The position numbers and the translations under genes were made by a program. From positions 36,258,803-36,322,802 of the forward strand of contig JAUZTB010000063.1 of NCBI GenBank assembly GCA_034780895.1: DNA of 64,000 nucleotides. The letters are read 5' to 3'. The stretch comes from Rhynchobatus australiae. Its lineage: Eukaryota. The stretch's first letter is position 1; each line of letters opens with the position of its first letter. Below, piece by piece: positions 3,111 to 55,925 of this stretch. The notes below the pieces were generated by a model. That model searched no databases. It was not told the DNA's origin and saw only the letters and a program-made list of their open reading frames with translations.

Positions 3111-4739
3111 GTGAATTCCAGAATGGCTTTTTATACAGGCCGAGACTGGGACAATAGCAACATTTTATATATGACCTGTATTAAAAAAAAATCAGAGGAA
3201 CAAGATTAATCTGCTCACTATGATGACTCTTGGATAGTCCTAGTTTACATAACATAGGTGGTGCAAGGGTAGGAATATGGGGGAGGCAGAAGACAAAAGC
3301 AGGGAAGGAAGTTGAAAGCTAGAACAGCTGAGCCAACGTATTACAGACTGTCAGATGAACTCAGCAGGTTGAGCAGACCCGCCAAGTTCCTCCAGCAGTT
3401 TGTTTTTGCACCAGATTCCAGCATCCACAGTCTATTGTGTCTCCAAGCCAACAGTGTACATCCAAGGAGGGGCAGCGAATTGGTCACATTGATGCATAGT
3501 AGCAATCTTTAATATTTACCTATTTAACATACAGCATTCTGCATGCAGCTAGTTACAAGTGTTGTTAACTTGTTTTGTGCTACTGTCTCAATATTGTGGC
3601 CTACATAGGAGTTTAGACTAATATTCAGTCACAAAGGCCTATGTTTTATAACATTTGAGAGCTGTTCTGCAGCTGAGTTTATAAAGGAACAAAGCTAACA
3701 TGAAATCACTTAAGAATTTTCCGTTTGAAATTGTTTACATCAATCCCAGTTCTAAAGCCAAATTTGGCAGGCCTACATTTACAGTGAAAGCTACTACATG
3801 AGTCATAGAAAATGCCAGCCAAAACGAAACTAGACTGTGATCTGTTTGTTTTTCCATCTCCAACATCCTAGTCATTGGATGAAATAATAATAGAAGTTAC
3901 TTTATCTACACCAGACACAGTCATAACGTCAAGAAAATCCCTGTGACACTCAAAGCCATCTGCTTCACCCATTGTGATTTAGCTCAATTAGCAAGAATTC
4001 CATTAAGATTCAGAAGTGTAATATTTTAGAAGAGGGAGCGGTAACAAAATGGAGGTGTTATTTTATTTCTGATTTCAGGTAAATTGAAAAGTAGACAACA
4101 TCAGCTAGAAATAAATAAAAGTGAATACAACAAAATAATCAGAAAACCTTGCACATTCAAGAGAAAATAAATTACCAGCAGCAAATTATAACATGCTCCT
4201 GCAATTCTTTTCCCAATGCACATTGCTAGCAGGGTTGATGTGGCCATGTAAAGACTCTCCACCTTTTCCTTCACATGGTTTCAGTGTATCATCTGCACCC
4301 AATCAAGCAAAAGACAATGAAATCTACTACAAAGCTGTTCTCTTCAGTGCTACCATAACAGAGGGCCTATATTGCAGATCTGATTTAAACTATCATCCAA
4401 TCTGGACTCATAAAGCCCCCAAAAAGATATTATAACCAGGATACATACATTGTGGACTGGGGACTAGATACAGAATAAAGTTCCTTTTACACCATTCCAT
4501 AAAATACTTTAAGGAAAGTGTACAGATGCATTGTAAAGCTCCCTCTCCACTGCCCCATCAAACATTCCAGGAAGGAGATAAAGGCATCGGATTAAGTTCA
4601 CTCTATATATACCATCAAACACTCACAGGAACCAGGAATAGGTGCAGAGTAAAACATCTCAACACACAGCAGAAATACCACCATTGCCACCTCTGCAAAT
4701 ACTCTTCAAAGCATTGGTGAACTAACAGCAGTATTCTCT

Positions 4740-5120: not shown

Positions 5121-5285
5121 GAGTGGTGCAAAAGCAAAATATAGCAGATGTTGAAAATCTGAAATAAAAGAGCAAAATACTAGAAATATGCCACAGGACA
5201 GAAAACATCTGTTAACATTTCAGATCAATAAACTTTCATTAGAACTGGAGAAAGTTAGAAATAAGGTTTGTGATGGGTTGGAAAC

Positions 5286-5378
5286 CAAGGGAACGCACGT
5301 GGTAGACGTCTGCAAGGGAACGCACGTGGTAGACGTCTGCAAGGGAACGCACGTGGTAGACGTCTGCAAGGGAACGCA
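5286..5378. repeat. 27-bp perfect tandem repeat (CAAGGGAACGCACGTGGTAGACGTCTG), about 3.4 copies
   Basis: Units at 5286, 5313 and 5340, partial unit at 5367. Confidence 0.95.
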
Positions 5379-5394
5379 TTTAGGAGATGACTGT

Positions 5395-5692
5395 CGTGTA
5401 GTGCAGCCCTTAGCATAATGCTTTACAGCGTCAGTGACCCGGGTTCAATTCCGCCTGCTGTCTGTAAGGAGTTTGGATGTTCTCCCCGTGTCTGCGTGGG
5501 TTTCCTCCGGGTGCTCCGGTTTCCTCCCACATTGCAAAGACATACAGGTTAGGAAGTTGCGGGTATGCTTTGTTGGCGCCAGAAGCGTAGCGACGCTTGT
5601 GAGCTTCCCCCCCCCAGAGCACACTACGCAAAAGATGCATTTCACTGTGTTTCGATGTACATGTGACTAATAAAGATCTTACCTTATCTTAG
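5395..5692 (+). mobile_element. V-SINE family A
   Basis: Collinear with 5-298. Confidence 0.85.
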
Positions 5693-6079
5693 ACACAGTG
5701 CAGGGTAGGGACAGGCCCTGCAGTCTGCAGTGCTAACGTGTAAACCTCCCACCAACCCTCCTAGAATGAGGGGGAAGCAAGACTCCACAAACACCCATCC
5801 ACCCCCTCAACTTCAGCTTCTGCAGGGACTTTAGGAAGCTTGCTTTGCCCAGGTCCAAGAGGACGACCAATCAGCATTGTGGCCTCTCCCCATTGGTCAA
5901 GTGGGAACCAATCACAGCAACGCCGGGGCCAATTCGTCCTACTTTCCACGATGTCACAGGGCCGGTCGCAAGCTCCCGCTTTATGAACCCAAAGGGCCAG
6001 GGAAAACAATCACCCACCAAAGCGGGACCTTCCCTACAGGTCCACCGTCCCCAATCGGGATACCGTAGCCGTAGCATAC

Positions 6080-6200
6080 CTGGTTCTAACCCGGGGTTGG
6101 AGCCGGCGGCGCGGAGGGAAGAGGAGACGTCCCGAGTGCAGGCGGCAGCGTCCGGAGAGGGGCGGCACCTCCTTCCTCATCGGCCAAGCGGGCAGGGGCG
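6080..6200 (-). other. RECQL: Probable non-coding exon 1 of RECQL (5' end approximate)
   Basis: Minus-strand donor CCAG|gtatgc at 6080/6079 inside the CpG island, pointing away from GOLT1B. The TSS cannot be determined from sequence. Confidence 0.5.
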
Positions 6201-6714
6201 GGGCTTCCTCCCGTCACTCACAAGCCGACGCCCCGCCCATGGGGGCGGGGCTAACCTCTCGTCACTCACACCACCCACTTAGGGCGGAGTGTCAATCAGC
6301 CGGTGGGGCGTGGCCTCCTACTGTCAGTCAAACGACAGGTGGGCAACTCCTCTCTGGGAAGAGCGTGGCCTTCTGCACTGTCAATCACACGGCGGCCGGG
6401 CAGCTCTCCCCGGAGAGGGGCGCGGCCTTCTGCACTGTCAATCACACGCCAACCCCGCAGGCCGGGGCGGAGCTTACCCCGTCAATCGCAGCGCTGCCTG
6501 CCTCTCCAACCAAAAGCCTTCCCTGCCGATCACGTGGGTAGCCTCTTCCCGCCACCGAGAGGGGCGGGGCTTCCACCACACGGCCCCGCCCCGGCCGGAT
6601 GTGGCGGTCGCTCGGTTACCGGGGGGGGGTGGGGGGAGGCGAGCCGCGTGTTTCCGGAAGACGTGGCGGCTGATGTGGATCTGGTGAAGCCGATGAGAAT
6701 CCGCCGCCGCCAAC

Positions 6715-6739
6715 ATGATCTCGCTGACGGACTCGCAGA
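6715..6739 (+). CDS. GOLT1B: GOLT1B (vesicle transport protein GOT1B) exon 1, MISLTDSQ+K
   Basis: Kozak-like gccgccaacATG; donor A|gtaagt; matches the N-terminus of GOT1B (MISLTDTQK). Confidence 0.96.
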
Positions 6740-7849
6740 GTAAGTGAGGCCGGGGCCTCGGTGGGCCGGGACAGGGAGAGGGGAGAGGGCCCCCGGGGGC
6801 CGGCGCCGCCGCCGCCGTCGTGTGCACGCGCTGCCGTGATTGATTGACAGCCTTGGAACCGCGCGCTCGCCGCCCCGCATTCACTTCCTCCTCTTCCCAC
6901 TCCACACAGCCGTCAGGCAGCGCCGCCAGACCGCCCATCCTCCATGCGATTCCGAGCGCCCGCCTCCCACAGCATGTTTTTCTTTAATGGTTTCTTCCAC
7001 ACTCTTGTCTCCCCTCGCTCAGTTTCTTTCATTCCCCCCCCCGCCCCTCTTTTTTCGAGGCAACGTGTATATAAACAGACTCGGCTCTGTTATCAAGGTT
7101 CGAATTGCAATTGAAACATTTGAAATGAAAACATACAAAGTTGAAGTCTCAAGGGGTTGATGTTGCTCCCAAATATAACAGTACAAAACACTGCCTCTTT
7201 CCAATTTGTCTGCACCTAGCATTACTAATCAGTACGCTTGGTACCTCTTAATCAATGATAAGGTCTTGCATTTTTATAAACACCTTTCATAACCTCAGAG
7301 AAGTTCCAAAGAGCTTTACAGTCAATGAAATACTTTGGAAGTATAATCATCATAATGAAAAAATCAAAACAGCTAACTTGTACACGATGTGACAAGACCA
7401 GAGTGTACAGCCCTTTCCTTCCTAGAAATGGCCTCCCAAATAAACAGACAGAACCTCAATTTAACATCTCATCTGCAGAACTGCACCTCCTACAGTGCAG
7501 GAGGCTAGGTTTGGCAGATTGGCTAATGATTTTCTTGTATCATCCTTCCTTTCAGAGCATCCAGTGCACCACTTTACCCAGGCAGACTATACTTGATAGA
7601 CAGTAAAGATTCACCCAATCAAATAGCCTATTGTCTCAATAGTATATTCACATCAGCTGAAACGAATTGCCTTCACCTTCTGTGCCATTTTGGAAATTCA
7701 GGACAATTTATCTATAAACATAAATAAGATTCTTCACTTTGGTAGAAGAATATAGAAATAGAAAGGAAATCATAAAATGATAGAAGCATAGAAACAAACC
7801 CTTCAGTCAACTCTGTGCCAGTGATCAAATACATACTTTCAAGTTCAAT

Positions 7850-9114: not shown

Positions 9115-9789
9115 NNNNNNNNNNNNNNNNNNNNNNNNNNNNNNNNNNNNNNNNNNNNNNNNNNNNNNNNNNNNNNNNNNNNNNNNNNNNNNNNNNNNNN
9201 NNNNNNNNNNNNNNCCGGCCGGGCGCTGTCGGCCGGGGGGATGGGGGCTGGGGCCGGGGGGTGGTAGGGGCTCGCCGGTCACCCCGTCTCGACTGTACCG
9301 GAGCCTAAAGCAGCTGAGATATGCGGTCCGTCGACACGACGGGCTGCGGATGCTGGAATCCGGAGCAACAGACGAAGAGGGGAGCTCAGCCGGTCGGGCA
9401 CCTCCTCTGGAGGGGGAGAAGAAGGAGGAGGAGGAGGGGGGGACAGTCGACATCCTGCACCTGGGCTGGGTGGGTTCCTCCAGCGGCTCCTCCTTTGCTA
9501 AGGGAAGTGATTTCACTCGCCCGCTTTAGGTAGCTCCCGCAGGCTGCGGCGATGAACTTGAAGCTGTTGTTTTGTGTCGATCTCAGGATTTCTGCTGGCG
9601 GCACTTCCTGAAGTTTAGTCACCAGTGCTTAAGTGAGCTCCCGCAAGCAGCCATATGATGATAACCGTCTCGTCTGCGGACGATCAGACAAAATTCCGCA
9701 AGCGTGACACTGACGAGAGGCTAAAAAGCGGAGGTGCCGTATCCCGAGGACATTAGCTGAGATTTAAGTTTATAAGCTACAGCTAAAAG

Positions 9790-10672: not shown

Positions 10673-11291
10673 GTAAGTTTTGTTTATGAAACGTATTTCT
10701 ACAAAGACTAAATTGTCCCCTTTTTTTTCCAAAAACTATTATCATTTTCAAAAATTTTCATTTTTCATTTCCAGTTTTAAGACTTAGGCAGGATCTATAG
10801 AGCTGACAGAGGAAACAAATACAATTGGAAAGCTTTTCTGCATTGCTTGAGTATTGGTATTCTCCTTGTTTAGAATAAGCCAAGACACTTGATGTGGTTC
10901 ATATGTAAAGCTCTTGAAACATCACCTCCAGTTCTGCCCATTGTTACCAACATCACTAACAACATGTAACCATCAGTGACTCAAAGACTTCAACTCCTGT
11001 TTCTTGTTCTTTTGGGATAACTTCTTTTAAAAATCACCTCTGCAAGCACAACTGAATTTGAAAGAAAAAAATGTGCTTGAAAATTTTTCCACAGATTGTA
11101 AAATTGAAATTTTAAGTAACCACTAAACTGTTATGGCTATTTTGCAAACTTTACTCTTGGTATTACCAACTCAGAATTCATTCGATACGTAACATCCGTA
11201 AAACAAAAAACATTCTCCCCACAAATTGTTTGCCTTTAATCACAAAATAATCTGACATGCCATGGGTTTCCCACATTATTAAATTTCTTTC

Positions 11292-11830
11292 GTTAGGAAG
11301 GATGTGGAGGCTTTGGAGAGGGTGCAGAAGAGGTTCATGAGGATGTTGCCTGGATTGGAGTTTATTAGCTATAAGGAAAGGTTGAACAAACTTGGATTGT
11401 TTTCTCTGGAACATCAGAGGCTGAGGGAAGACCTGATANNNNNNNNNNNNNNNNNNNNNNNNNNNNNNNNNNNNNNNNNNNNNNNNNNNNNNNNNNNNNN
11501 NNNNNNNNNNNNNNNNNNNNNNNNNNNNNNNNNNNNNNNNNNNNNNNNNNNNNNNNNNNNNNNNNNNNNNTTAAGTCTGGTGGTACGTGCCCTCAGGCTC
11601 CTGTATCTTCTACCCGATGGAAGAGGAGAGAAGAGAGAATGTCCCGGTGAGGCTGAGGTGGTAGAAGCAGATATGATAGCAACATTTAAGAGGCATTTAG
11701 ACATTTACGTGAACAGGCAGAGAATAGAGGGATACCAACCATGTACAGACAGATGGGATTAGTTAAATTGGCATCATGGTCGGTATTGATGAAGCTCCTG
11801 TTCTGTGATGTACTGTTTTATGTTCTATAA
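11292..11830 (+). mobile_element. CR1 3' end with gap and an embedded Rex1/Babar piece (11571-11650, minus strand)
   Basis: ALERVQKRFMRMLPGL..LGLFSLE; the minus strand gives SLFSPLPSGRRYRSLRARTTRL. Confidence 0.8.
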
Positions 11831-13934: not shown

Positions 13935-14790
13935 GATGACGCAAGGAGTGGAGGTGTAGAGGGTACAGGGTGGTATCGGTGTGTTGGTGAAATGGGCTGA
14001 GAAGTGGCAGATGGAGTTTAATCCAAATGAACAAGAGGTGATACATTTTGGGAGCACTTGTGAGACTAGGATGTACACAATGAATAGTAGGGTCCTAGGG
14101 AGTGTTGAGGAATAGAGGGACCTTCACTTACAAATGCAAAGATTCTTGCAGGTGGGAGTGCAGGTAATAAGGGATATGGGAAACTGGTCTTCATTAGTTG
14201 GGTCATTGAATACAAGAATAGGGAGGTTATGCTCCAACTTCATAAAACGTTGGTCAGACTTCAGATGGAGAACTGCGTGCAGTACTGGTCACCACAGTAT
14301 AGGAAGGATGTGATAGCACTGGAGCGGGTACAGGGAGGTTCACCAGGATGTTGCCTGGGATGGAGCACTTCCTTTATGAGGAGAGACAGGAGAGGTTGGG
14401 TCTGTTTTCCCTGGAACAGAGGAGGTCGGGGGGGACATGATTGAAGTATAATAAAATTATGAGAGATATAGATAGAGAGGACTGCAGGAAACTTTTTCCC
14501 CATATCGGAGATAGATAAGAAGGCATAGATTTAGGGTAAGGGGTTAGGGATTTAGAGGGGCTCTGAGGGGGACCTTTCTCACCCAGAGAGTGGTGAGTAC
14601 CTGGAATACACTGCCTGGTGGAATTAGATTTGCTGACAGCATTTACTGTGTCTGTATAAGCATTTGAATTGCCAAGGCGTAAAAGGGAATGGGCCAAGTG
14701 CTGGAAGATGAGATTAATACTGATGAGTGCTTGTTGGTTGACATGGATGTGGTGTGTTGAAAGGCCTGTTTCCATGCTGTATGACTCTAT
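13935..14790 (+). mobile_element. CR1 LINE 3' fragment
   Basis: WAEKWQMEFNP, MLQLHKTLVRLQMENCVQYWSPQYRKD, and the tail TGACTCTA. Confidence 0.88.
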
Positions 14791-18299: not shown

Positions 18300-19530
18300 G
18301 GACTTGAATAGCGTCCTTGACTACATCTCCTTCCGTCCTGTTCCTATAAGGACTTCATCCTATTCTTCCATTTTCTCCCATTCCAACGCATGCTCTGATG
18401 ACAACAGTACTTCCGAGTTGTTCTTCTTGACAACTCGTCCATCGTGGTCGATGGGGCTCTCAACCACTTTTGTTCCATTTGCCATACATTGATTTCATCC
18501 ATTCTTCTCCCTTCCAGAGAAAGGAAAAGCTTCCCTTGTCATCGCCTGGCAATCCACCTGCATCCACTTTCAATAAATCATCTTCCATAATTTCCTCCAT
18601 ATTCAGCCACCCACCAGGAGAAACATCTTCCCCCTCCCCTTTGACCAGTCTCTTCGCAGTTCCCTGGTTCACTTTTCTCAGCTGCACTGCCATTGTCACA
18701 TCCACTTTTCCATGCAAATCAGAAGCAAAACCATCCTTTTACCTATTCTATTCCTATCATCCAGTGACCCAAACACTCCTTGCAGCTCACTTGCACTTCT
18801 AAGTGCAAGGAGTGTGGTCTCCTCTATGTTGGAGAGATGAAACCCAGAGTAGGTGACTGCTTTGCAGAAGACTGTTCAGTCCTTGTAAGTGATTCTGAGC
18901 TTTCCAGTTGCCTGTCGCTCTAATTCTCCATCCCACTCCCATTCTGACATCTGTCTTTGGCCTCTTGCACTGTTATATCAAAGCCCAAATTAAGCTCCAG
19001 GCACGGCATCTCATCCTCCAGTTGGGGATGTTATAGTCCTGAGGACTTGTTATTGAATTCAGCCTTTCCAGTTGGTATCCAAAACGCTAGTTCTGATGAA
19101 AGTCATCAACCTGTCACGTTGCATCCATTTTTCTTTCTCCATGGATTTTGTTGAACCTGATGAATATTTTCAGCATTTANNNNNNNNNNNNNNNNNNNNN
19201 NNNNNNNNNNNNNNNNNNNNNNNNNNNNNNNNNNNNNNNNNNNNNNNNNNNNNNNNNNNNNNNNNNNNNNNNNNNNNNNNNNNNNNNNNNNNNNNNNNNN
19301 NNNNNNNNNNNNNNNNNNNNNNNNNNNNNNNNNNNNNNNNNNNTGAACACACCCCCCGCCCCCCCCCCCCCCCAATTCTCTCAACCTTTTCCCTTGGAAT
19401 GTAAAATCTGTTTGATTTCTAAATTTTTTGAGTTATGATGAAAGGTCATTGACCTGAATTGTTAACCTGTTTCTCTCTGCACAGATGTCACCTGACCTGC
19501 TGAAATTTTCCCACACTCTGTTTTTCTTTT
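18300..19530 (+). mobile_element. Penelope-like element, GIY-YIG endonuclease region and terminal repeat
   Basis: CKECGLLYVGEMKPRVGDCFAE (about 18803-18870) is GIY-YIG-like; hammerhead-like cores at 19089 and 19431. Confidence 0.8.
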
Positions 19531-22500
19531 GAAGTTGGGTGTGGGGAAGCTCTCATTGTTGAGGAAGGCGAAATTCGTAGAGCCTTTTTCCTGCCTTTAT
19601 CTGTTTGGTTGTCCATTTCACTCATAGTTGAATCTGGAATAGCTAAACATTTGATGTGATTTATTGGTTATACAATCTTTTGAATGCATTGAATTCACAT
19701 ATTGTTTAAAAAGTACTTGGTTCTTTGCACAAAACCACAGTTGTGCTACTAATGGAAATGTCCCAGCTGTCACATACTTATCAGGGAGAACAACTCTGTT
19801 ACTAGAGTTGTTGGCAAAGCCCGTTGAATTTTTGGTATTTTGTTGGTGACAGGTGGATTTGGTATTTCTGCAGTGGGAGCTTAGAGCACTTTTGGTTTAA
19901 ATACCTAAGTATTTTACTGCCATATGCTGTAGTTTTGAAAAATTGCAAAGTATTTGAAATAACCTTGGATATCAGTTACATGTGATGCATCAGGTCAACT
20001 TTATTTTAATTTACAATTGATCAATAAAGGAAATATAGCATTTAAAGCACTGATACTCTAGATGCTGGATACTGATATTCCAGTTTATTATTTTGGAATC
20101 CGGTAGAAGGTTTATGCCCACAAATACTTGAGGAATTTGTCATGTATTTAATAGGAGATATCAGATGGGTGAATCTTAAAGAATCTTCCTTTTCTACATT
20201 TTAGCTGTTTAGAATCATATCAGCAAAGATTTAGAAGCATAAGTGTCTATCTTGTCTTTTTGACTGATGAATGGTGAATATCAAGGGAACAACTGAGTGG
20301 ATCAGGAATGAAGTTTACAGTTACCAAAATGTCTGGAACTTTTCTAGTGCATTGATAATTCCCAGTTATGTGTTTGATTTAATTCATTCTGATTATTAAG
20401 TTGAGGGTATTCGTTCTCAAATGCACAGATGTGAGTAATTGTGCTCAGATAATGGTCATCTTTTCAGGCTTATTAATAATAATACACTTTTAACTGAAAT
20501 GCAACTTCATTTTATTCTCTTTTAAAGTGTAGCGAGCCCTCTCTGACCAAGAGGAGTACTCGTAGACCCTAATTCAAACATAGGTCTTGTTTATTTCTAC
20601 AACTTTATTGAACATGTCTGACATGAAAAAGCAGAGAAGTTGGCAGATTCACTAAAAGAATATAGAGACAATCTGGACAAAGCCTGCAGAATGAGAAATT
20701 GAAAAGAGCAAATTTTCTTTAAAAAATCTCCAAATCGCCAATAGAGATAGGACAGGGGAAGAAGTTTCAATGAGAACTTCAGATGAACTTTGGTTGAAGA
20801 ATGAGAAAGACTTGCGAAAGATGGGTAATGTTGATTTGTTTCCTTTGTACATTATATACAGCAGTAAAAGTCGTGATCTAATAAACAGAAGTCTGGTCTT
20901 GTAGGCACCACTTTCAAAACCTGTTTTTACTCTGCAACACTTGATCAGGTTAGCATAATATCCTGGTCTCATTGGCTGCCCCAACTCCCACCACTCCACC
21001 CCAAATCTAGTGTCCAGTTTCCATTGCTTATCAGTAGTTTCAATATATAAAAGGCTAGATGGAGGAGAAAATGGAACTAACACATTGATGTGATTTATCT
21101 GAAGGTTGGTTCTGGTCTGTGCTATCTTATTGCCAACACTAAAAATGTAAACAACTGCCCGTGACATTAGAAAGGTAATCTTTCCTAATTGAAGAAATAC
21201 AATTCAACAAGTTAACTTCTTAAAGCACATTTATCCTAAACCCAGCATAGGTAGTCCTTTGTGAAACAATTGAGTAAATACTGTTGTAATTCTTGCCAAA
21301 GGTAGAACTTTCCCTTCGATTTTCTATCTCATTTTCAGACGTGTAACTAAAACGGTACTCTAGATGTTGTCATCTAAGATTCGGTTATAGTTTTTGGGGG
21401 TAAGAACTGCAACTTCTGGAAATTTGGTACTGAAACAGCATTGTAGAAATGACCAAAATCGATCCGTTTCAATGCAAAGTAAGTGTAGGTCAGTGTTTGG
21501 AGTGCATCGTTCATCACTTCTGAAGAATACTTGCCCAAGCCATCCAAACTTGTCTTTTTATCATTGGAGGCTTTCTCTGAAGTTTCTGCTGACTGTAGTG
21601 GACTTGCTTTGGAAGAACGGGCATTGAAAGGCAAATCTGTGGAAAGCTTTTACATTGACCACTTTAGAATAGAAGTTTTCCTTGCACGAGTTTGGCTGAT
21701 AACCCAATGGATGCTGAAAATCCTTAGGGAGAAAAACAAAATGCCAGAAGCACCCATCAGATCAAGCAGCATCAGTAAAGACAAATAGACAAGATTTCAG
21801 GTTAAGGGACCTTCAGAAAACTAGAAAAGTGAGAAAATAGGCATATTTTAAGTTGAAAAGAGAGAGAGAATGGAGAGAATAGAGGGCATGACTACAATAT
21901 GCTGAAGACTAAAGATGTCAAGAAAATAATTACTTTAAGAATGAGCGCTTTAGAGACNNNNNNNNNNNNNNNNNNNNNNNNNNNNNNNNNNNNNNNNNNN
22001 NNNNNNNNNNNNNNNNNNNNNNNNNNNNNNNNNNNNNNNNNNNNNNNNNNNNNNNNNNNNNNNNNNNNNNNNNNNNNNNNNNNNNNNNNNNNNNNNNNNN
22101 NNNNNNNNNNNNNNNNNNNNNNNNNNNNNNNNNNNNNNNNNNNNNNNNNNNNNNNNNNNNNNNNNNNNNNNNNNNNNNNNNNNNNNNNNNNNNNNNNNNN
22201 NNNNNNNNNNNNNNNNNNNNNNNNNNNNNNNNNNNNNNNNNNNNNNNNNNNNNNNNNNNNNNNNNNNNNNNNNNNNNNNNNNNNNNNNNNNNNNNNNNNN
22301 NNNNNNNNNNNNNNNNNNNNNNNNNNNNNNNNNNNNNNNNNNNNNNNNNNNNNNNNNNNNNNNNNNNNNNNNNNNNNNNNNNNNNNNNNNNNNNNNNNNN
22401 NNNNNNNNNNNNNNNNNNNNNNNNNNNNNNNNNNNNNNNNNNNNNNATATCTCTGTTCTAATTTGTCTCTCTATTTATCTTCTGTTCCTAGCAGCTCATT

Positions 22501-24174
22501 TTAAAATTATTTGTCATCTTGACAGCTTTGGTCTGCATCCTGTCGCAGAAAGTCCCACTGTTTCTCCACCTCCCCTTTTCTGCAACTTAAAATTCATTTG
22601 CTTTCTCACCTTTGCAGTTCTGAGGGTGGGTTCTAGACCCAAAACATCAACTCTCTCTCCCCATGCTGCTTCACCCACTGAGTGCTTTCCAGCAGCCTGT
22701 TTTTACAGATGATAACATATCTGCCTTTGAATACGAAATCATCAATTTAAAAAAAGCATCAATGACAGTCCAGTGTAGTAGTAAATTTGGAACTATTGCC
22801 CATCAGAGGATAGTTGAGTCAAGGTCACAACTTGTTGGTTGTGAGACACAAAGGATCCATGGCACTGTTTGAAAGTAAGATGAATTTTGCTGCTATTTGA
22901 CCAATATCCTGCATCAACAAATGCCATAAAAAGATTGGTGATTTGTTTACTTGGCTGTTTCTGGTGTCTGGTGTGAGCAATTGACTGCTACATTTTGTCT
23001 CTACAAAACAAGCTGCAATTCAAACATAATCTATTGGTTGTAAAATAGTTTATAATGTGCTAAATGCATATACAGTGTATAGTTGTAATAACTTGTACTG
23101 TAATGTTCTCATTTCCCTCTATGATGGTCATCATTCTGGCTACCAAGATTCAGCACACCTTAGGAATGACACCAAATTGTTTCTAAATTGAGGGCCAAAA
23201 TTGTTTTTACAGATCTCCCAAGTGGAAATTCAGTAAACAACACTGTATTATGTTGGTCATTTAGTTAAGTAGGTTTGAAATGTTAGTGACACAAGTACAG
23301 GAAATGGTACCTCAAAGTCACCTTTTAACTTGGCCTTTCGAATTGACATAATCTCAAATATGGCTGAGAGCTGATCTCCAACACATTGAATCTGTTCTCT
23401 GGTAACTATGCAGTCAGATATCTGACTCTGGTTAAACTCAGATGTAAAATTGTTATATTCTATTATTTGGGATTAACCCTTGGTAAATTTACAAACTATA
23501 CCTCTTGGCAGAAAATCCTCCTAAGGTTCCGGGACCACATTTAAAGTCTTAAACACCCATGTGGCATCTCCTGTATAATTAGATCATCAGTTGGTGTGTG
23601 TTTGTTTGAATGAACCTGCGGAAAAAAAAAATTCACATAATCAAGCCACCTAGCACTTTGAACAATGAATTTGCTGGTATTATGCTGCTTGTTAATGATT
23701 ATTCCGTTAAATATCTTTAAAGCTGGCGATGTAAAGGAGGCTGAGCATGAAGTACGTACCTTGTTACATTTTCATAATGGGCTTTTTTTTACTTAATCTG
23801 GAGGGAAGACCTGCTTAAAGCAGTCTAGCTTGGTACTTTTTTTTATCACAGCATGTTGCAACCTTAACTTAAAACTTCATTCCAAGCAAATAAGAGATGC
23901 ATGGTACAATGATCCTGAGTTTGTGTCAGAAATTGAAACTTGCATTGACGAAGGAGATTATCACCGAACATCATTGTTGTGTTCACCATAATCTGTCTTT
24001 AATCAATGGGTGACAAGTCACTGGTGGTGCATGTTTCTCTAACTAACTGCTTAAACAATGCAGTAAGGATTACATGCTTCATTGACCTTTCACTTTTTTT
24101 GTAGATTTCAGAATTTTAAAAAAATTTTAATAATATTGTAACAAAAATAAACCAGGCAACTTTTCTCAAGATGC

Positions 24175-24390
24175 AAGAGACTGTAGATGTTGGGCTCTGG
24201 AGCAAAATAACAAGCTGCTGGAAGAACTCAGCGGGTCAGGCAGCAGCTGTGGAGGCAAAGGAATAGTCGACATTTCAGGTTAAGACCCTGCATTGGTCCT
24301 GATGCAGGGTCTCGACCCAAAGCATCAACTATCCCTTTGCCTCCACAGATGCTGTCTCACTCGCTGAGTTCCTCCAGCAGCTGTTTTATT
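24175..24390. mobile_element. Fold-back (palindromic) non-autonomous element made of two inverted Penelope-like ends
   Basis: GCTGCTGGAAGAACTCAGCG...GACCCTGCAT / ATGCAGGGTC...CGCTGAGTTCCTCCAGCAGC form about 80-bp imperfect inverted arms. Confidence 0.8.
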
Positions 24391-24711
24391 TTACTTTCCT
24401 CATGATGTGAATTTGCTTTCCTCAAACAGTACACTACACTGATTTGGCTCATTCCTGGTACACTTCCAGCACAGGACTTTGCTACTTTTGAGATCTCTAT
24501 GCTGAAAGTACAGAAGAGATGCCAATTGAACATTATCCATTGGCCAACTATTGTATGGCATTTAATCAGGCATAATTAGCACATAGCTCTTCAGTATTTG
24601 AAGAATATTTATTGCGAGTATTACAACAATGTTTTAACTTTTTTGCTCTCTATTCTCATTTGCTGAAGTATTAACATTTCTTAATCAAGAAGGTAGTGTT
24701 ATAATTTGTTT

Positions 24712-26213: not shown

Positions 26214-26590
26214 NGACCCTTCTTCAGGACTGAAGATAGGAAAAGGGGAAGCCCGATATATAGGAGGGAAAAGCAGAGCAGTGATAGGTGGGCAAAAGAG
26301 GGGAGGCAGGGTGGGCACAAAGTGGTGATATGTAGATGCAGGTAAGAGATGGTGATGGGCAGGTGCGGGGGAGGAGGGGAGAGCAGACCCACCGGGGGAT
26401 GGAGGAGGGAGAAATGAGGCGGTAGAAAAAAGTGAGATAGGCTGGGAAAAGGAAGAAAAGAAGAGGCATGTTTGGGGGTGAGTGTGGGGAAGCAGGGTGG
26501 GGATTACCTAAAGTGGGAGAATCCAATGTTCATGCTGTCAGGCTGCAAGATTCCAAGATGGAAAATGAGGTGCTGTTCCTCCAGTCTGTG
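26214..26590 (-). mobile_element. Penelope-like 3' end
   Basis: HRLEEQHLIFHLGILQPDSMNIGFSHFR followed by a pyrimidine-rich tail and GTCCTGAAGAAGGGTC. Confidence 0.8.
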
Positions 26591-33825: not shown

Positions 33826-35854
33826 ACAGGATCTGTGACAGTCCATAAAAAAAACTGGTTAGTCTGACTTGCTGCAAGCTGATAGCACAAGGCCTAAAAT
33901 AATTTCCTTGTAAGAATTATTAATACTGTACATATGAATTTATAAGTTGGTCTGGTAATAACAGTTGCATTTTAAATTTGAATTCTGGTTAAAATGAGCT
34001 CACCTACATTACTGATTTGTGACTCAGAATCTTTAGAGTCCTCCATAATTGCAGTTGGTATGTATGTGTACACCAAACAAAACTTGCTCACTTTTGCAGA
34101 ATTTTCTGTCTTGACTCAGTGGCTGCCTGGAGTGGATCTGCCCTGAAGTTATACAGGTTTTTAAAAACACTTTTACTTTTACATTAATTCAGAAAGAATA
34201 AAGAAGTCAATGTCATTGAAACAAAATCAATGGAAGGCCGATAAATGCTCCCATGTAGATATTGGCAAGTCTGCCTTTTAGAATTCTAATCAAGTGATAT
34301 GTATTTTCACACACAAGTCTAGGAATAATTTTTGGTGATAATACCAGAGCAATGCTTAACACCCTCCTTTAACATTCCCTGGTCCATAGTTTAACCATTT
34401 TGTTTCAGAGGGATTAACACATTGGAGACAAATTGATGAAGAATTACATAAAAATAGCAGTCACAGGTATGTAATAAACATTAGTAAATTTCGTTCTTCT
34501 TGTGACTGTGAAAGTCTCGTACTGCCAATAGAAATTACATGGGGCTGCATGTTGTGCTTTTGGATGGATTGTATATCGCAAATATATTTTGCTCTTATTA
34601 GAACTGTGTTACATGATTACTGTTATATAAGTGATCAAGGGAGCATGACTTACAGAATACCGATTTAAAATATCTAGAAATAAGATCTATCGTGTTTTAG
34701 TAAAAGTTGAAACTGTTGGGTTGTCATCAAAAACTCAACTCATTCACTAATATGCTTCAGTAAAAAAATATGCCAACCTGATCCAGTGTAACCTCTATGT
34801 GACTCCTGTCCCTAATCAACATGGTTGTTTCTTCCCTGCTGTCTGAATTGAAAAAGAAAATAACTCCTGTACCAAATTCTCAAGCCAACTAAGGATAAGC
34901 ACCAAGCCGGTAAATAAATGTTTACAATAAATATCACTGCTCAGTTTTCCTCACAATCGTTAACTGTAAGAGACCTTAAAACTGTCATCAACTGTGGAAG
35001 TTACTTAACTCAACAGGTTTCTCACAAGCATATCAACCATTGACCTCAAACGTAATACAACGTGGTAAAAATCGTATGAGTGTCTTTTAAAATTGAACTC
35101 TGTTCCCTGCATTATTTCTGCTCTAACATTTCCACTATAATGATCAGTCAATTCACAACATGAACAGCTTTTTTATGGCAATAAAGTATCAGGAAGTAAA
35201 TAAGTAGGCATATTAAACACTGTTTGGGCAGGCTTCAGCAACTACCTATAAAAATATTCCTCTCAACTTTTCTCTCTTTATAAATAAAGGAAGAATGATA
35301 AATAAATTTGTTAATTGCATTTCACAAAAAAAAACATCATTTGATTTGGAATCACTTCTGTTCAAATATGTGGGAAACTAGCTGATAAAACGAGTTTAAA
35401 TTATTTCTGATAACCTTCAGTCCATCATCCAACCAAATACTTTTTTTTAAATTCGCGGGGTACATTCAGCATCGTTGGCAAGACCAGCATTTGTTTGTGC
35501 ATACATCCATAATTGCCCTTGAGAAGGTGGGGGTGAGACATGTGGGGATTGGTCTCCCAGAATCTCTTTAGGTGGGAATTCCATGATTTTGATCTGTTGA
35601 CCCTGAAGGGATGGTGTTGGGCCAACCACTGTCCAGGCCCACCCCTCCTCGCTCTCCACACGCCCAGGATCACCTGCGTGTGCTGAGCCTCCAGTCCACA
35701 GCAAACTGCAGGGAGGCCTCGGGGAGATTAGGCTCAGCTGGTGTAATGCTGAAGCCCCACCCCAAGCCAGTTTTTGTTTATTATGTTGTATAAATTATGC
35801 ATAACTTATGTTAATTTACATTTATGTAATTTATGTTTGTCATTCGATTTGATG

Positions 35855-36145
35855 AGATATCTTTATTAGTCACATGTACATCGAAACACACAGTGAAATG
35901 CATCTTTTTCATAGAGTGTTCTGGGGCAGCCTGCAAGTGTCACCACAGTTCCGGCACCAATATAGCATGCCCACAACTTCCTAACCCATATGTCTCTGGG
36001 ATGTGGGAGGAAACTGGATCACCCAGAAGAAACCTACGCAGACACGGGGAGAACATACAAACTCCTTACAGACAGTGGTGGGAATTGGACCCGGGTTGCT
36101 GGCGCTGTAATAGGGTTATGCTAACCACTACACTACCGTGCCTGC
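35855..36145 (-). mobile_element. V-SINE family A, full length
   Basis: Reverse complement of 5-298. Confidence 0.85.
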
Positions 36146-41369: not shown

Positions 41370-41680
41370 ACTTTGCAGAACACCTCCATTCAGTTTGCAA
41401 GGCTTCCAATTGCCTGTTGTCTTAATTCTCCATCCCATTTCCTCTCTGATCTCTCTGCCTTTGGACCCCTATATTGCTCCAACAATGCGCAATGTAAGTG
41501 TAAGGAACAGCATCTCATCTTCTGTCTATCTACTCTGAAGCCCTCAGGATCTAACAAGTTCAGGTAACCACTCCAGCTGCTTTGCTCTTTGCATTTTCAG
41601 TTCTTGACCTGAAATGTTGACTCTGATTCACTCGCTGTTGTTGCTGCGTAACCTGTTCATTGCTTTCAGCACTTTCTGTT
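41370..41680 (+). mobile_element. Penelope-like 3' fragment
   Basis: LPIACCLNSPSHFLSDLSAFG...CKEQHLIFCLSTLKPSG. Confidence 0.75.
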
Positions 41681-42274: not shown

Positions 42275-42940
42275 AAGAATGTTGGCCTTCCTTACTAGAG
42301 GGATTGAATTTAAGAGAAGGGAGGTTATACTGCAATTGTACAGGCTGCACCTGGAGTACCGTGTGCAGTTCTGGCCCCCCAACTTGAGAAAAGATATACT
42401 GGCTTTGGAGGTGGTGCAGAGGAGGTTCACTGGGTTGATTCCGGAGATGGAGGGGATTAGCCTGTGAAGAGAGATTGAGTTGCCTGGGACTATACTTGCT
42501 GGATTTCAGAAGAGTGGAAGGGGATCCTATAGAAACATGAAATTACGAAAGAGATAGATAAGGCAGAGGCAGGAAAGTTGTTTCCACTGGCAGATGAGAC
42601 TAGTACTAGGGGACATAGCCCCAAAATTCAGGGGAGTAGATTCAGGGCACAGATGAGGAGAGTAGTGAATCCATGGAATTCTCTGCCCAGGGAAGCAGTG
42701 GAGGCTACCTCATTAAATACAATGATTTCTTTATTAGTCACATGTACATCGAAACACACAGTGAAATACATCTTTTGTGAAGTGTGCTCTGGGACAGCCC
42801 GCAAGTGTCGCCACACTTCTGGCACCAACGTTGCATGCCCACAATTTCCTAACCCATACGTCTATGGAATGTGGGAGGAAACCAGAGCACCCGGAGGAAA
42901 CCCATGCAGACACGGGGAGAATGTACAAACTCCCTACAGT
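42275..42940. mobile_element. CR1 3' fragment (+, to about 42720) followed by a truncated V-SINE A (-)
   Basis: MLAFLTRGIEFKRREVILQLY; SINE tail in reverse at 42725. Confidence 0.85.
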
Positions 42941-45409
42941 CAATAAACTTAAAGAAGAAGTGCATTTTGGATTTTGGAAAATTAACTCACATAATAGAAG
43001 TTATTTGCCACCAAAAATACAGATCAAATAACATTAGCAGAAGCTTAACTGAAAAGTGGATAAACTGGACTTTTGATGTTGTTATTTCTCCCAGGGACAG
43101 TTAAGAAAGAAAGGGGCAAATTTGGTGAAGGAGAGAGTGCATGATGCAAGGAGAACACAAAATAGGTGCAAATAAAGTTAACATGATCACAGACTGGCGA
43201 TAAAACAACCTGTGGAGTTATTGGAATATAAGCTGAAAATGTTGGGGATACTCAGCAGGTCAAGCAGTCTCTCTGGGGAAAGAAACAGAATTATATGTTT
43301 TGACGGCCAAGAAAGTAATGGGGTTCCATTAACTGTTATATTAATATTACAGAGACACAAGAGGCTGCTGATGTTGGAATCTGGAGCAAAGAAGAAACTG
43401 CTGGGGAACTCAATGAGTCAGGCAGCATCTGTGGACACAGAGATAGTCGACATGTTGGGTCTCGACCCTGCATCAGGATAATAATACAGACCTCCTAGCA
43501 CTGAGAGCTAAAAGAAAAGGAAAGTAAACTGATTTCTGAAAATGTTTATCATTTGCAGAGATTTTAATCACCAATTCAGGAATCGGGGCAGGGAGTGAAG
43601 AAGAGAATCCATTCCCTAAAACATTCCTCCTCAAACTGTTCATACTCCTAAAAGGCCAGAGGGTCTGTTAAGCTGGTTACAGGCAATGAAACAGATCAGG
43701 TAAATGAATTAAATCTGGATTGGCATCTTGGGGTTGGTGGCCACAACATGATGCAATTTAAGATCCAAATAAAAAGTGGAACAGTTAAGGACAAACACAA
43801 GTGAATTAGACTGCAGTAGGGTAGAATATAGAAACATGAAGGGGTTAGCCAATGTAAATGGAAAGTGACATTCACAACTGGGATGTGTATAACAATGGAA
43901 TTTTTTAGAAATCATCTTGCAAGGACATGANNNNNNNNNNNNNNNNNNNNNNNNNNNNNNNNNNNNNNNNNNNNNNNNNNNNNNNNNNNNNNNNNNNNNN
44001 NNNNNNNNNNNNNNNNNNNNNNNNNNNNNNNNNNNNNNNNNNNNNNNNNNNNNNNNNNNNNNNNNNNNNNNNNNNNNNNNNNNNNNNNNNNNNNNNNNNN
44101 NNNNNNNNNNNNNNNNNNNNNNNNNNNNNNNNNNNNNNNNNNNNNNNNNNNNNNNNNNNNNNNNNNNNNNNNNNNNNNNNNNNNNNNNNNNNNNNNNNNN
44201 NNNNNNNNNNNNNNNNNNNNNNNNNNNNNNNNNNNNNNNNNNNNNNNNNNNNNNNNNNNNNNNNNNNNNNNNNNNNNNNNTGTCATTTACCTTTATTCTC
44301 CTGTGCCACATACCTTCTCTTTAATCTTTAAGGAGCCAATTCATGCCTTTCCTTTTCCATTCATTATGAGTGTTATTTATAAATTAACTTTTCTGTTCTT
44401 ACTGGACAACTGTATTTACCAACATTCTATATACTATGCACCTATATCCAAGCAGTTACTATTTGATGACAGAAAGTGCAAAAGATGTGATTGATTATAT
44501 TTGCCAGTGAAAATAAGCCACAAACATACACTGACAGATGCTTGGTGCGTCACTACTAATATCCGTTAGAGATCTTAAAGGTCAGCCCTAATTGCATTAG
44601 CCTTACAGAGGTACATTTCAGTCAAAACATGAGTTGATACTACAGTTTTCGTAATGCTAACTGCCATGCCAAGTTACGCAAGCAGGGAGTAGCTCTATGT
44701 CTGAGATGTAAGGTTATACTGGCATCACTATCAGCTTATTAAAGCTTTAGGCTCATTTACAGGGATCAAAATGTCAAACTAATAGAAATATTTCCTCACT
44801 TGTAGAATCAAAAGGTTAAACAATGTCTAATACTTGGATCATTTCTTTTCAAGAGAACGCCAATTTTAAAAAGTTAAATTATTAAATGCACATTCTATTC
44901 AACTTTACCATGACATTTCTTCCTCATGAAGACAGAAATAATGAAGTGAGTATTGAATCATAAGGTGGCTTAACACTCTCAGTTTTTATTTTCCTAATGT
45001 CTTCCTTGCCATTCAAGATGAAAGAGAATGAGATGTTTTAAAACATATCAAACCTAGGTTGTAACTTCGAAGTTTAGTCACAATAACCTGAACAAGAATA
45101 TCATCCATAAAAGCTAACATCAGACTACATAAGGAGAAATTAGGATGTGACCAAAACCTTGGTTAGGGAAATAGAGTTGAAAGAGCATGTTGAAGGGTAG
45201 AGGAGAGAAAGGTTTAGGCAAGAAACTCCAGACTAACACTCCCTCAGATTATTCTCTCTCTTTTTACTCTCTCTCAACGTGCACTAATGTTGTTATGTTT
45301 ATTTTGTGTAAATTATGTATAATTTATGTTAACTTGTGTTTGTCATGTTCGTGATATACCAAGCTGCTGCTGCAAAAAGTTAATTTTCATGGTATTGGTA
45401 CTGGTATCG

Positions 45410-55448: not shown

Positions 55449-55925
55449 TATCTTTAGTCACGTGTACATCGAAACGCACAGTGAAATGCATCTTTTTGCN
55501 NNNNNNNNNNNNNNNNNNNNNNNNNNNNNNNNNNNNNNNNNNNNNNNNNNNNNNNNNNNNNNNNNNNNNNNNNNNNNNNNNNNNNNNNNNNNNNNNNNNN
55601 NNNNNNNNNNNNNNNNNNNNNNNNNNNNNNNNNNNNNNNNNNNNNNNNNNNNNNNNNNNNNNNNNNNNNNNNNNNNNNNNNNNNNNNNNNNNNNNNNNNN
55701 NNNNNNNNNNNNNNNNNNNNNNNNNNNNNNNNNNNNNNNNNNNNNNNNNNNNNNNNNNNNNNNNNNNNNNNNNNNNNNNNNNNNNNNNNNNNNNNNNNNN
55801 NAAACCGGAGCACCCGGAGGAAACCCACGCAGTCACAGGGAGAAAGTACAAATTCCTTACAGACAGCGGTGGGAATTGAACCTGGGTCACTGGTGTTGTG
55901 GTATGCAAACCGCCACACTGCCTCG
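55449..55925 (-). mobile_element. V-SINE family A (gapped)
   Basis: Both ends match family A in reverse. Confidence 0.8.

Follow-up and report, generated by a model that had tools for sequence, protein, structure and literature searches.

The window analysed here is a 64,000-nt stretch of the Rhynchobatus australiae genome (contig JAUZTB010000063.1), and positions 18643–19018 of its forward strand hold what is left of a GIY-YIG endonuclease, now broken, from an old Penelope-like element (PLE) of family A (tblastn E 3.6e-9, three pieces, 39–75% identity). Pfam finds no GIY-YIG match in this remnant, which lies upstream of two hammerhead motifs. The first, directly after the endonuclease stop, is an internal degenerate hammerhead-like unit with a tail remnant (19089–19179, forward); its CUGAUGA is good, helix II is broken, GTCAC replaces GAAAC and helix I has lost its 3' strand, so that this motif is an incomplete hammerhead, with private damage added to a family-level change at position 13 (GUAA or GCAA for GAAA). 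An assembly gap of 164 N (19180–19343) separates it from the second, a terminal minimal hammerhead of family A (19431–19466, forward) in which helices I and II pair and the core carries the private damage C3A, A15.1U and C15.2U. A conserved tail follows downstream of the predicted cleavage site (19467–19532, forward; tail-only profile E 1.8e-9).

Hammerhead units elsewhere in the window

All seven motifs listed in an earlier sequence-only reading of this DNA are present, at or a few bases off the positions given there. Besides the pair above, these include a decayed family A hammerhead that has lost most of its tail (5209–5246, reverse; G5A and a helix II mismatch), identified by descriptor and by endonuclease and profile searches, and a decayed hammerhead with tail (22616–22715, forward; A9G and G12A), identified by descriptor and tail profile. 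Positions 24204–24391 hold two units of the A9C lineage in a head-to-head inverted insertion, with 90-nt arms that are 80% complementary and a tail of class C9; this stretch folds at -128.6 kcal/mol (z -13.3) and is predicted to form one long hairpin that sequesters both motifs. The end of a family B4 element (26215–26587, reverse) comprises, from sequence and translation, the endonuclease C-terminus, which by eye resembles the endonuclease end of our element consensus, a pyrimidine-rich 3' UTR and the 5' half of a CUGAAGA hammerhead, cut off by an assembly gap (26215–26232, reverse). A further A9C-lineage hammerhead with tail begins at the ribozyme 5' edge and has a decayed GAAA (43359–43480, reverse; descriptor, tail profile and tail class), and a second endonuclease remnant, detected by tblastn and profile, is followed by a hammerhead without its core (41403–41660, forward). 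Ten more decayed units or tails of the element lie at 3375, 41602 and 49644 on the forward strand and at 9414, 17174, 17506, 21811, 43289, 49434 and 50982 on the reverse strand.

An initial mismatch descriptor found three of the quoted motifs and five other sites, and profiles were used instead. With a profile made from genome copies we find 16 units in the window at a threshold of at least 16 bits, and none at the same threshold in 20 two-base-block shuffles or in the reversed window. No copy in the window passes a strict hammerhead descriptor; an Rfam scan of the window, which is uninformative for minimal forms, gives no hammerhead match at E ≤ 10. Judged by their sequence, the motifs at this locus are dead and the local copies are fossils.

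Elsewhere in the window a GC-rich stretch (5800–7100) resembles a CpG island or the promoter of a gene, in whose introns the hammerhead copies may lie. Another abundant, dispersed SINE-like repeat occurs at 10–316, 5398–5677, 35829–36110, 42724–42976 and 55454–55899, LINE-like fragments lie near 11283–11828 and 14109–14500, and a tandem repeat of about four copies of a 27-nt unit spans 5286–5393.

The carrier element and its subfamilies

The earlier attribution of these minimal type I hammerheads to a Penelope element is borne out by a consensus made from 14 genome loci at which a coding stretch adjoins the hammerhead, and in which reverse transcriptase (RT), endonuclease, UTR, hammerhead and tail form one element. 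Its order is RT motifs, a CX4CxxC linker, a GIY-YIG-like domain, a pyrimidine-rich UTR, the hammerhead and a tail of ~90 nt, which places the hammerhead in the pLTR at the 3' end of the PLE at loci with upstream coding sequence. The translated consensus carries YIDD and GVAMG, which we take to be PLE-type RT motifs, and the linker between RT and endonuclease; the GIY-YIG pattern is recognized by eye. Pfam RVT_1 matches the element at E 0.0037, below its curated cut-off, Pfam searches of decayed copies return no GIY-YIG or PLE-specific match, and none of 150 scored matches has a full-length intact ORF. The ATG within the core opens no conserved reading frame, and family B4 has no such ATG. In the tails of all families a pyrimidine tract is followed by CAG or TAG (CGG in B4) and an ATG ~25 nt past the cleavage site (19467–19490 in the window); the tract ending in CAG or TAG resembles a 3' splice site. 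Retention of introns is known for PLEs.

RT, linker and putative C-terminal GIY-YIG domain are arranged as in the endonuclease-bearing (EN+) Neptune and Nematis elements described by Craig et al. 2021 (PMC8557442), where a CX2-5CxxC linker is the mark of the group, and the copies share with EN+ PLEs their 5' truncation, partial tandems, inverted 5' copy and tail. Unlike those elements, ours shows no full-length intact ORF, and its likeness to Neptune is one of anatomy; on this footing the carrier is likely a Neptune-type Penelope retrotransposon.

Abundance was estimated from 140 evenly spaced 10-kb stretches of the genome (1.18 Mb without N), searched with a tail-only profile that is blind to the ribozyme. 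This profile detects 285 units in the sample and none in its reverse, which extrapolates to ~450,000 mostly dead units in the 2.23-Gb genome. One randomly sampled locus (L070) also contains long protease-, RT- and integrase-like frames of an LTR retroelement. None of 80 complete sampled copies retains an intact core and helices, and a strict descriptor that is looser than this test gives three matches in the sample, all of known families, and none in the reverse. The view that every complete copy is a core-mutated fossil thus holds locally and in the sample, but not for the whole genome, where exact searches recover two types of intact copy, with 227 and 98 occurrences (none in controls), counts inflated slightly by near-identical copy pairs ~400–550 nt apart; one such pair, L148/L149, has an N gap between its members and is probably an assembly duplication.

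Most of the damage is CpG decay, at 11.1/12, 15.2/16.2 and 17/1.1, and through it the raw plurality at position 12 of B1 is A. Outside CpG, tails diverge by 13.4% (C9), 13.3% (B1), 10.4% (B4) and 17.4% (A). Core divergence among copies is lower than tail divergence, a comparison biased by trimming and tail heterogeneity, and we rejected it as a sign of selection on copies on account of the alignment trimming.

Two subfamilies with different paired stems had been proposed. Clustering by tail only gives at least four, and the inner part of helix II (GGTC/GACC) is invariant between them. Among 243 classified random copies, 134 belong to A, 45 to C9, 44 to B1 and 20 to B4. An endonuclease tree of 36 rows, each with at least 200 nt of gap-free endonuclease, resolves A, C9 and B1 as separate groups, the last with a single B4 row next to it; the C9 clade has support of 94/87 (not starred), its rows having been chosen by likeness to one copy. 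As predicted, the A, B1 and B4 consensuses of the tail-only clusters read CUGANGA and GAAAC-GUH. Family A has helix I GUU/AAC, U11.1 and U17, with A10.1 a minority state (27/70); CpG decay as the cause of its U11.1 was rejected (T 76, C 9 at that position; G 83, A 7 at position 12). Column counts show that helices I and II, the extra nucleotide after position 9, the palindromic 15.2-16.2 and NUH are kept, and 88.6% of cells in a hand-picked 20-row alignment are paired, versus 13–46% in slid controls.

The covariation that had been noted across copies comes down to two pairs that change on both sides, 2.1-1.1 (C-G to U-A) and 10.1-11.1 (G-C, G-U, A-U), the only ones to do so, and it is inseparable from ancestry. 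The association of 2.1 with 1.1 across copies (p = 7e-5) is weaker than that of the unpaired control 2.1 with 11.1 (p = 2e-7) and is absent inside family A, two such both-sided pairs are reached in 455 of 500 shuffles, and the strict descriptor adds no further families from the sample. The changes fit the fold but amount to about two substitution events, and the fold itself rests on homology to the known motif.

This anatomy has close precedents. Minimal hammerheads in the pLTRs of metazoan PLEs, described by Cervera & De la Pena 2014 (PMC4209133), cleave weakly as dimers and share with ours the type I layout, CUGANGA, an extra nucleotide before helix II, palindromic 15.2-16.2 after GAAA, NUH and a short helix I, as well as a prevalence of solo truncated copies and opposite-strand pairs. 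The family A states U17, G10.1-U11.1 and A10.1-U11.1 all occur in their published alignment. The searchable supplements of that study have no shark, skate or Callorhinchus entry, the alignment rows examined show no C9, A4 or U13 core, and its descriptor would miss such cores; the ~4.5e5 mostly dead units extrapolated here far exceed the copy numbers given there, with the qualification that ours is a count by homology and theirs by descriptor. Non-LTR retrozymes (bioRxiv 10.64898/2026.07.22.740005) also carry PLE-derived type I hammerheads, with one chondrichthyan case reported, but are tandem arrays with a hammerhead in every unit, whereas here truncated PLE ends occur scattered through the genome, alone or head to head; neither sample nor window contains a tandem array with an intact hammerhead per unit.

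Core changes carried by whole lineages

We find three departures from the canonical core, A9C, U4A and A13U, that are the majority states of their own lineages and not, as the sequence-only reading had it, private decay of single copies. The C at position 9 of the motifs at 24296 and 43445 is one example, since C is the consensus of that subfamily. The A9C core (CUGAUG-C) has 101 exact copies in the genome. In a hand count of core-blind genome matches of this family position 9 is C in 53, T in three and A in two (n = 58), compared with C in two of the first 100 of 394 B1 matches; 30 of 33 readable random C9 copies carry the change. C9 is common to two tail sub-lineages (16/18 and 7/7) and sits on an RT/endonuclease lineage of its own: among 29 loci picked solely by their endonuclease sequence, 15 have a downstream unit of the C9 tail type, 14 of which carry C9, and the other 14 loci have no unit. 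U4A was counted by hand in 37 of the first 100 of 394 B1 matches and occurs in 13 of 29 readable random B1 copies. It predominates in one upstream context (A 227, T 24, C 10, G 6; 227/267) and accompanies upstream coding sequence in one copy only. Both A9C and U4A are transversions outside CpG, and an origin by CpG decay was rejected for them.

The internal unit represented at 19089 is likewise a family feature, placed just past the endonuclease stop and behind a short palindrome, and ~305–425 nt ahead of the terminal hammerhead in the window and, by profile, at four of 19 related loci. Position 13 is T in ten, C in four and A in two of the 16 units readable among 25 distinct loci (hand count). 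The palindrome, 22 nt long (loci L296–L325; window 19070–19099), has 91 exact matches, some of them counted on both strands, and resembles a fold-back junction that became fixed in some old master element. By their consensuses, the A9C, U4A and internal A13U units are hammerhead-derived variants that depart from CUGANGA or from GAAA. RNA reads filed under another species label show U4A at 15–25% and A9C at 3–34%, which suggests that the variants are likely shared between species.

Natural core departures are known from Perreault et al. 2011 (PMC3088659), where they are rare, of low or no activity and found in isolated sequences; here they mark high-copy retrotransposon lineages. The variants presented there (U3-A8, A6C, A6a, U13a and U15.1-A16.1) do not include A9C, U4A or A13U. 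Our literature search returned no report of A9C or U4A hammerheads, which further literature may list, and nothing on elasmobranch PLE hammerheads. The motif and its arrangement in a PLE are already published; what may be new is the lineage-level A9C, U4A and A13U cores, none of which our search found in print.

Insertion boundaries and the place of self-cleavage

Among 267 matches we find 42 head-to-head pairs and no tail-to-tail pair; same-strand neighbours less than 700 nt apart number 14 pairs among the 267 sample matches, without intact units. The 109 young copies divide into 35 that are inverted, 28 that extend into the UTR, 24 that begin at the ribozyme 5' edge, a class inflated by a boundary model that begins 8 nt before C3, 13 that begin inside the ribozyme and one with tail only, and eight are unreadable. 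Of the 38 young copies that are truncated and not inverted, none starts within 2 nt of the cleavage site, which indicates templates that were uncut or re-ligated; since copies also span the predicted site, cleavage is likely dispensable for insertion.

These data lead us to consider it probable that we are dealing with minimal hammerheads, now decayed, from the 3' repeat of a Penelope element that is likely of Neptune type, that lineages with fixed core changes amplified, and that self-cleavage was likely dispensable for these insertions, as is also suggested by lineages with damaged cores having amplified as well as canonical ones. The element's RT/endonuclease would start reverse transcription in the tail and copy through the uncut hammerhead, often stopping where helix I begins on its 5' side or folding back there, and would thereby leave solo or hairpin insertions of 100–200 bp, whose decay would be neutral and affect CpGs first. 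For canonical masters (A, B1, B4) we would expect slow cleavage of dimers formed through the ACGU palindrome; for variant masters cleavage would be slow or absent, and the fold would be kept passively or as a structural signal. A mutational scan reports low activity for cores with one altered position in the CUGA turn (PMC9901934), and Naiads spread without a hammerhead (PMC8557442). In PAc, a Poseidon element of Anolis (Frangieh et al. 2024, PMC11167929), the hammerhead likewise lies upstream of the tail, reverse transcription begins in the tail, the insertion template is the uncleaved RNA and catalytic mutants leave insertion in vitro unaffected; its core is canonical, protein-assisted and bench-tested, whereas the core-changed lineages here are natural ones known from sequence alone.

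Several points count against dispensability. The variant lineages keep the helices, the ACGU palindrome and NUH while their endonucleases differ at ~35–45% of residues, which suggests selection on the fold. CUGAUG-C-A could keep A9 beside G10.1 with the C bulged, and we found no measured cleavage rate for A9C in the literature. Because the PAc hammerhead needs protein to cut, activity in cells may by analogy differ, and site-spanning copies could derive from re-ligated circles.

It is conceivable, though we think it doubtful, that a coding Penelope lineage amplified to ~70,000 copies with a CUGAUG-C-A core that still cleaves, through a bulged C with the 'extra' A as A9 or in mixed dimers; if so, hammerheads would have a natural core architecture that every CUGANGA descriptor overlooks, and the U4A lineage alongside would show that ribozyme loss is tolerated. 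That the variant cores are active natural hammerheads throughout, with cleavage part of the life cycle, seems to us unlikely. A9C would then act by a register shift, with C bulged after G8 and the 'extra' A serving as A9, by help from an element protein, or both, and the helices, palindrome and cleavage triplet conserved across lineages, the C9 of both tail sub-lineages, the low but real activity of some natural core variants (PMC3088659) and the protein assistance of PAc (PMC11167929) would fit; three separate core positions, however, changed independently, one of them in the CUGA turn (U4), where single mutants have low activity (PMC9901934), and three RNA runs under another species label, with both strands covered, show no end pile-up, standard RNA-seq being a weak test.

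A further, improbable reading makes these units substrate-only partners, which canonical cores would cut within mixed dimers, either in trans or, at a pair such as 19089/19431, in cis. Variant units do retain NUH and the ACGU palindrome as well as the 3' helix I strand, B1, U4A, C9 and B4 have helix I strands that fit one another over 3 bp, and internal and terminal units lie at the spacing given above in the window and at the four related loci. Trans pairing, however, requires high co-expression, the internal unit resembles an old captured fold-back junction, and ViennaRNA places the active homodimer 12–21 kcal/mol above the misfolded dimer, a rough figure for canonical pairs only; monomer and dimer folding does not discriminate the variants, and its B1 strings carried a CpG-decayed A12. 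The original model of two subfamilies descended from active canonical consensuses, with all core changes private decay, holds for most changes, which are CpG decay, and accommodates the lack of intact copies among the 80 sampled, but it is very improbable given at least four subfamilies, and the three majority-state core changes contradict it at their positions.

As to the role of hammerheads in endonuclease-bearing Penelope elements, Craig et al. (PMC8557442) raise the view that these ribozymes may be parasites of the element. The genome studied here amounts to a natural experiment, in which lineages that are sisters but differ in core type (canonical, A9C or U4A) each reached tens of thousands of copies by extrapolation. 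The contrast between them bears on whether amplification in vivo required cleavage or whether the hammerhead core tolerates more change than has been assumed.
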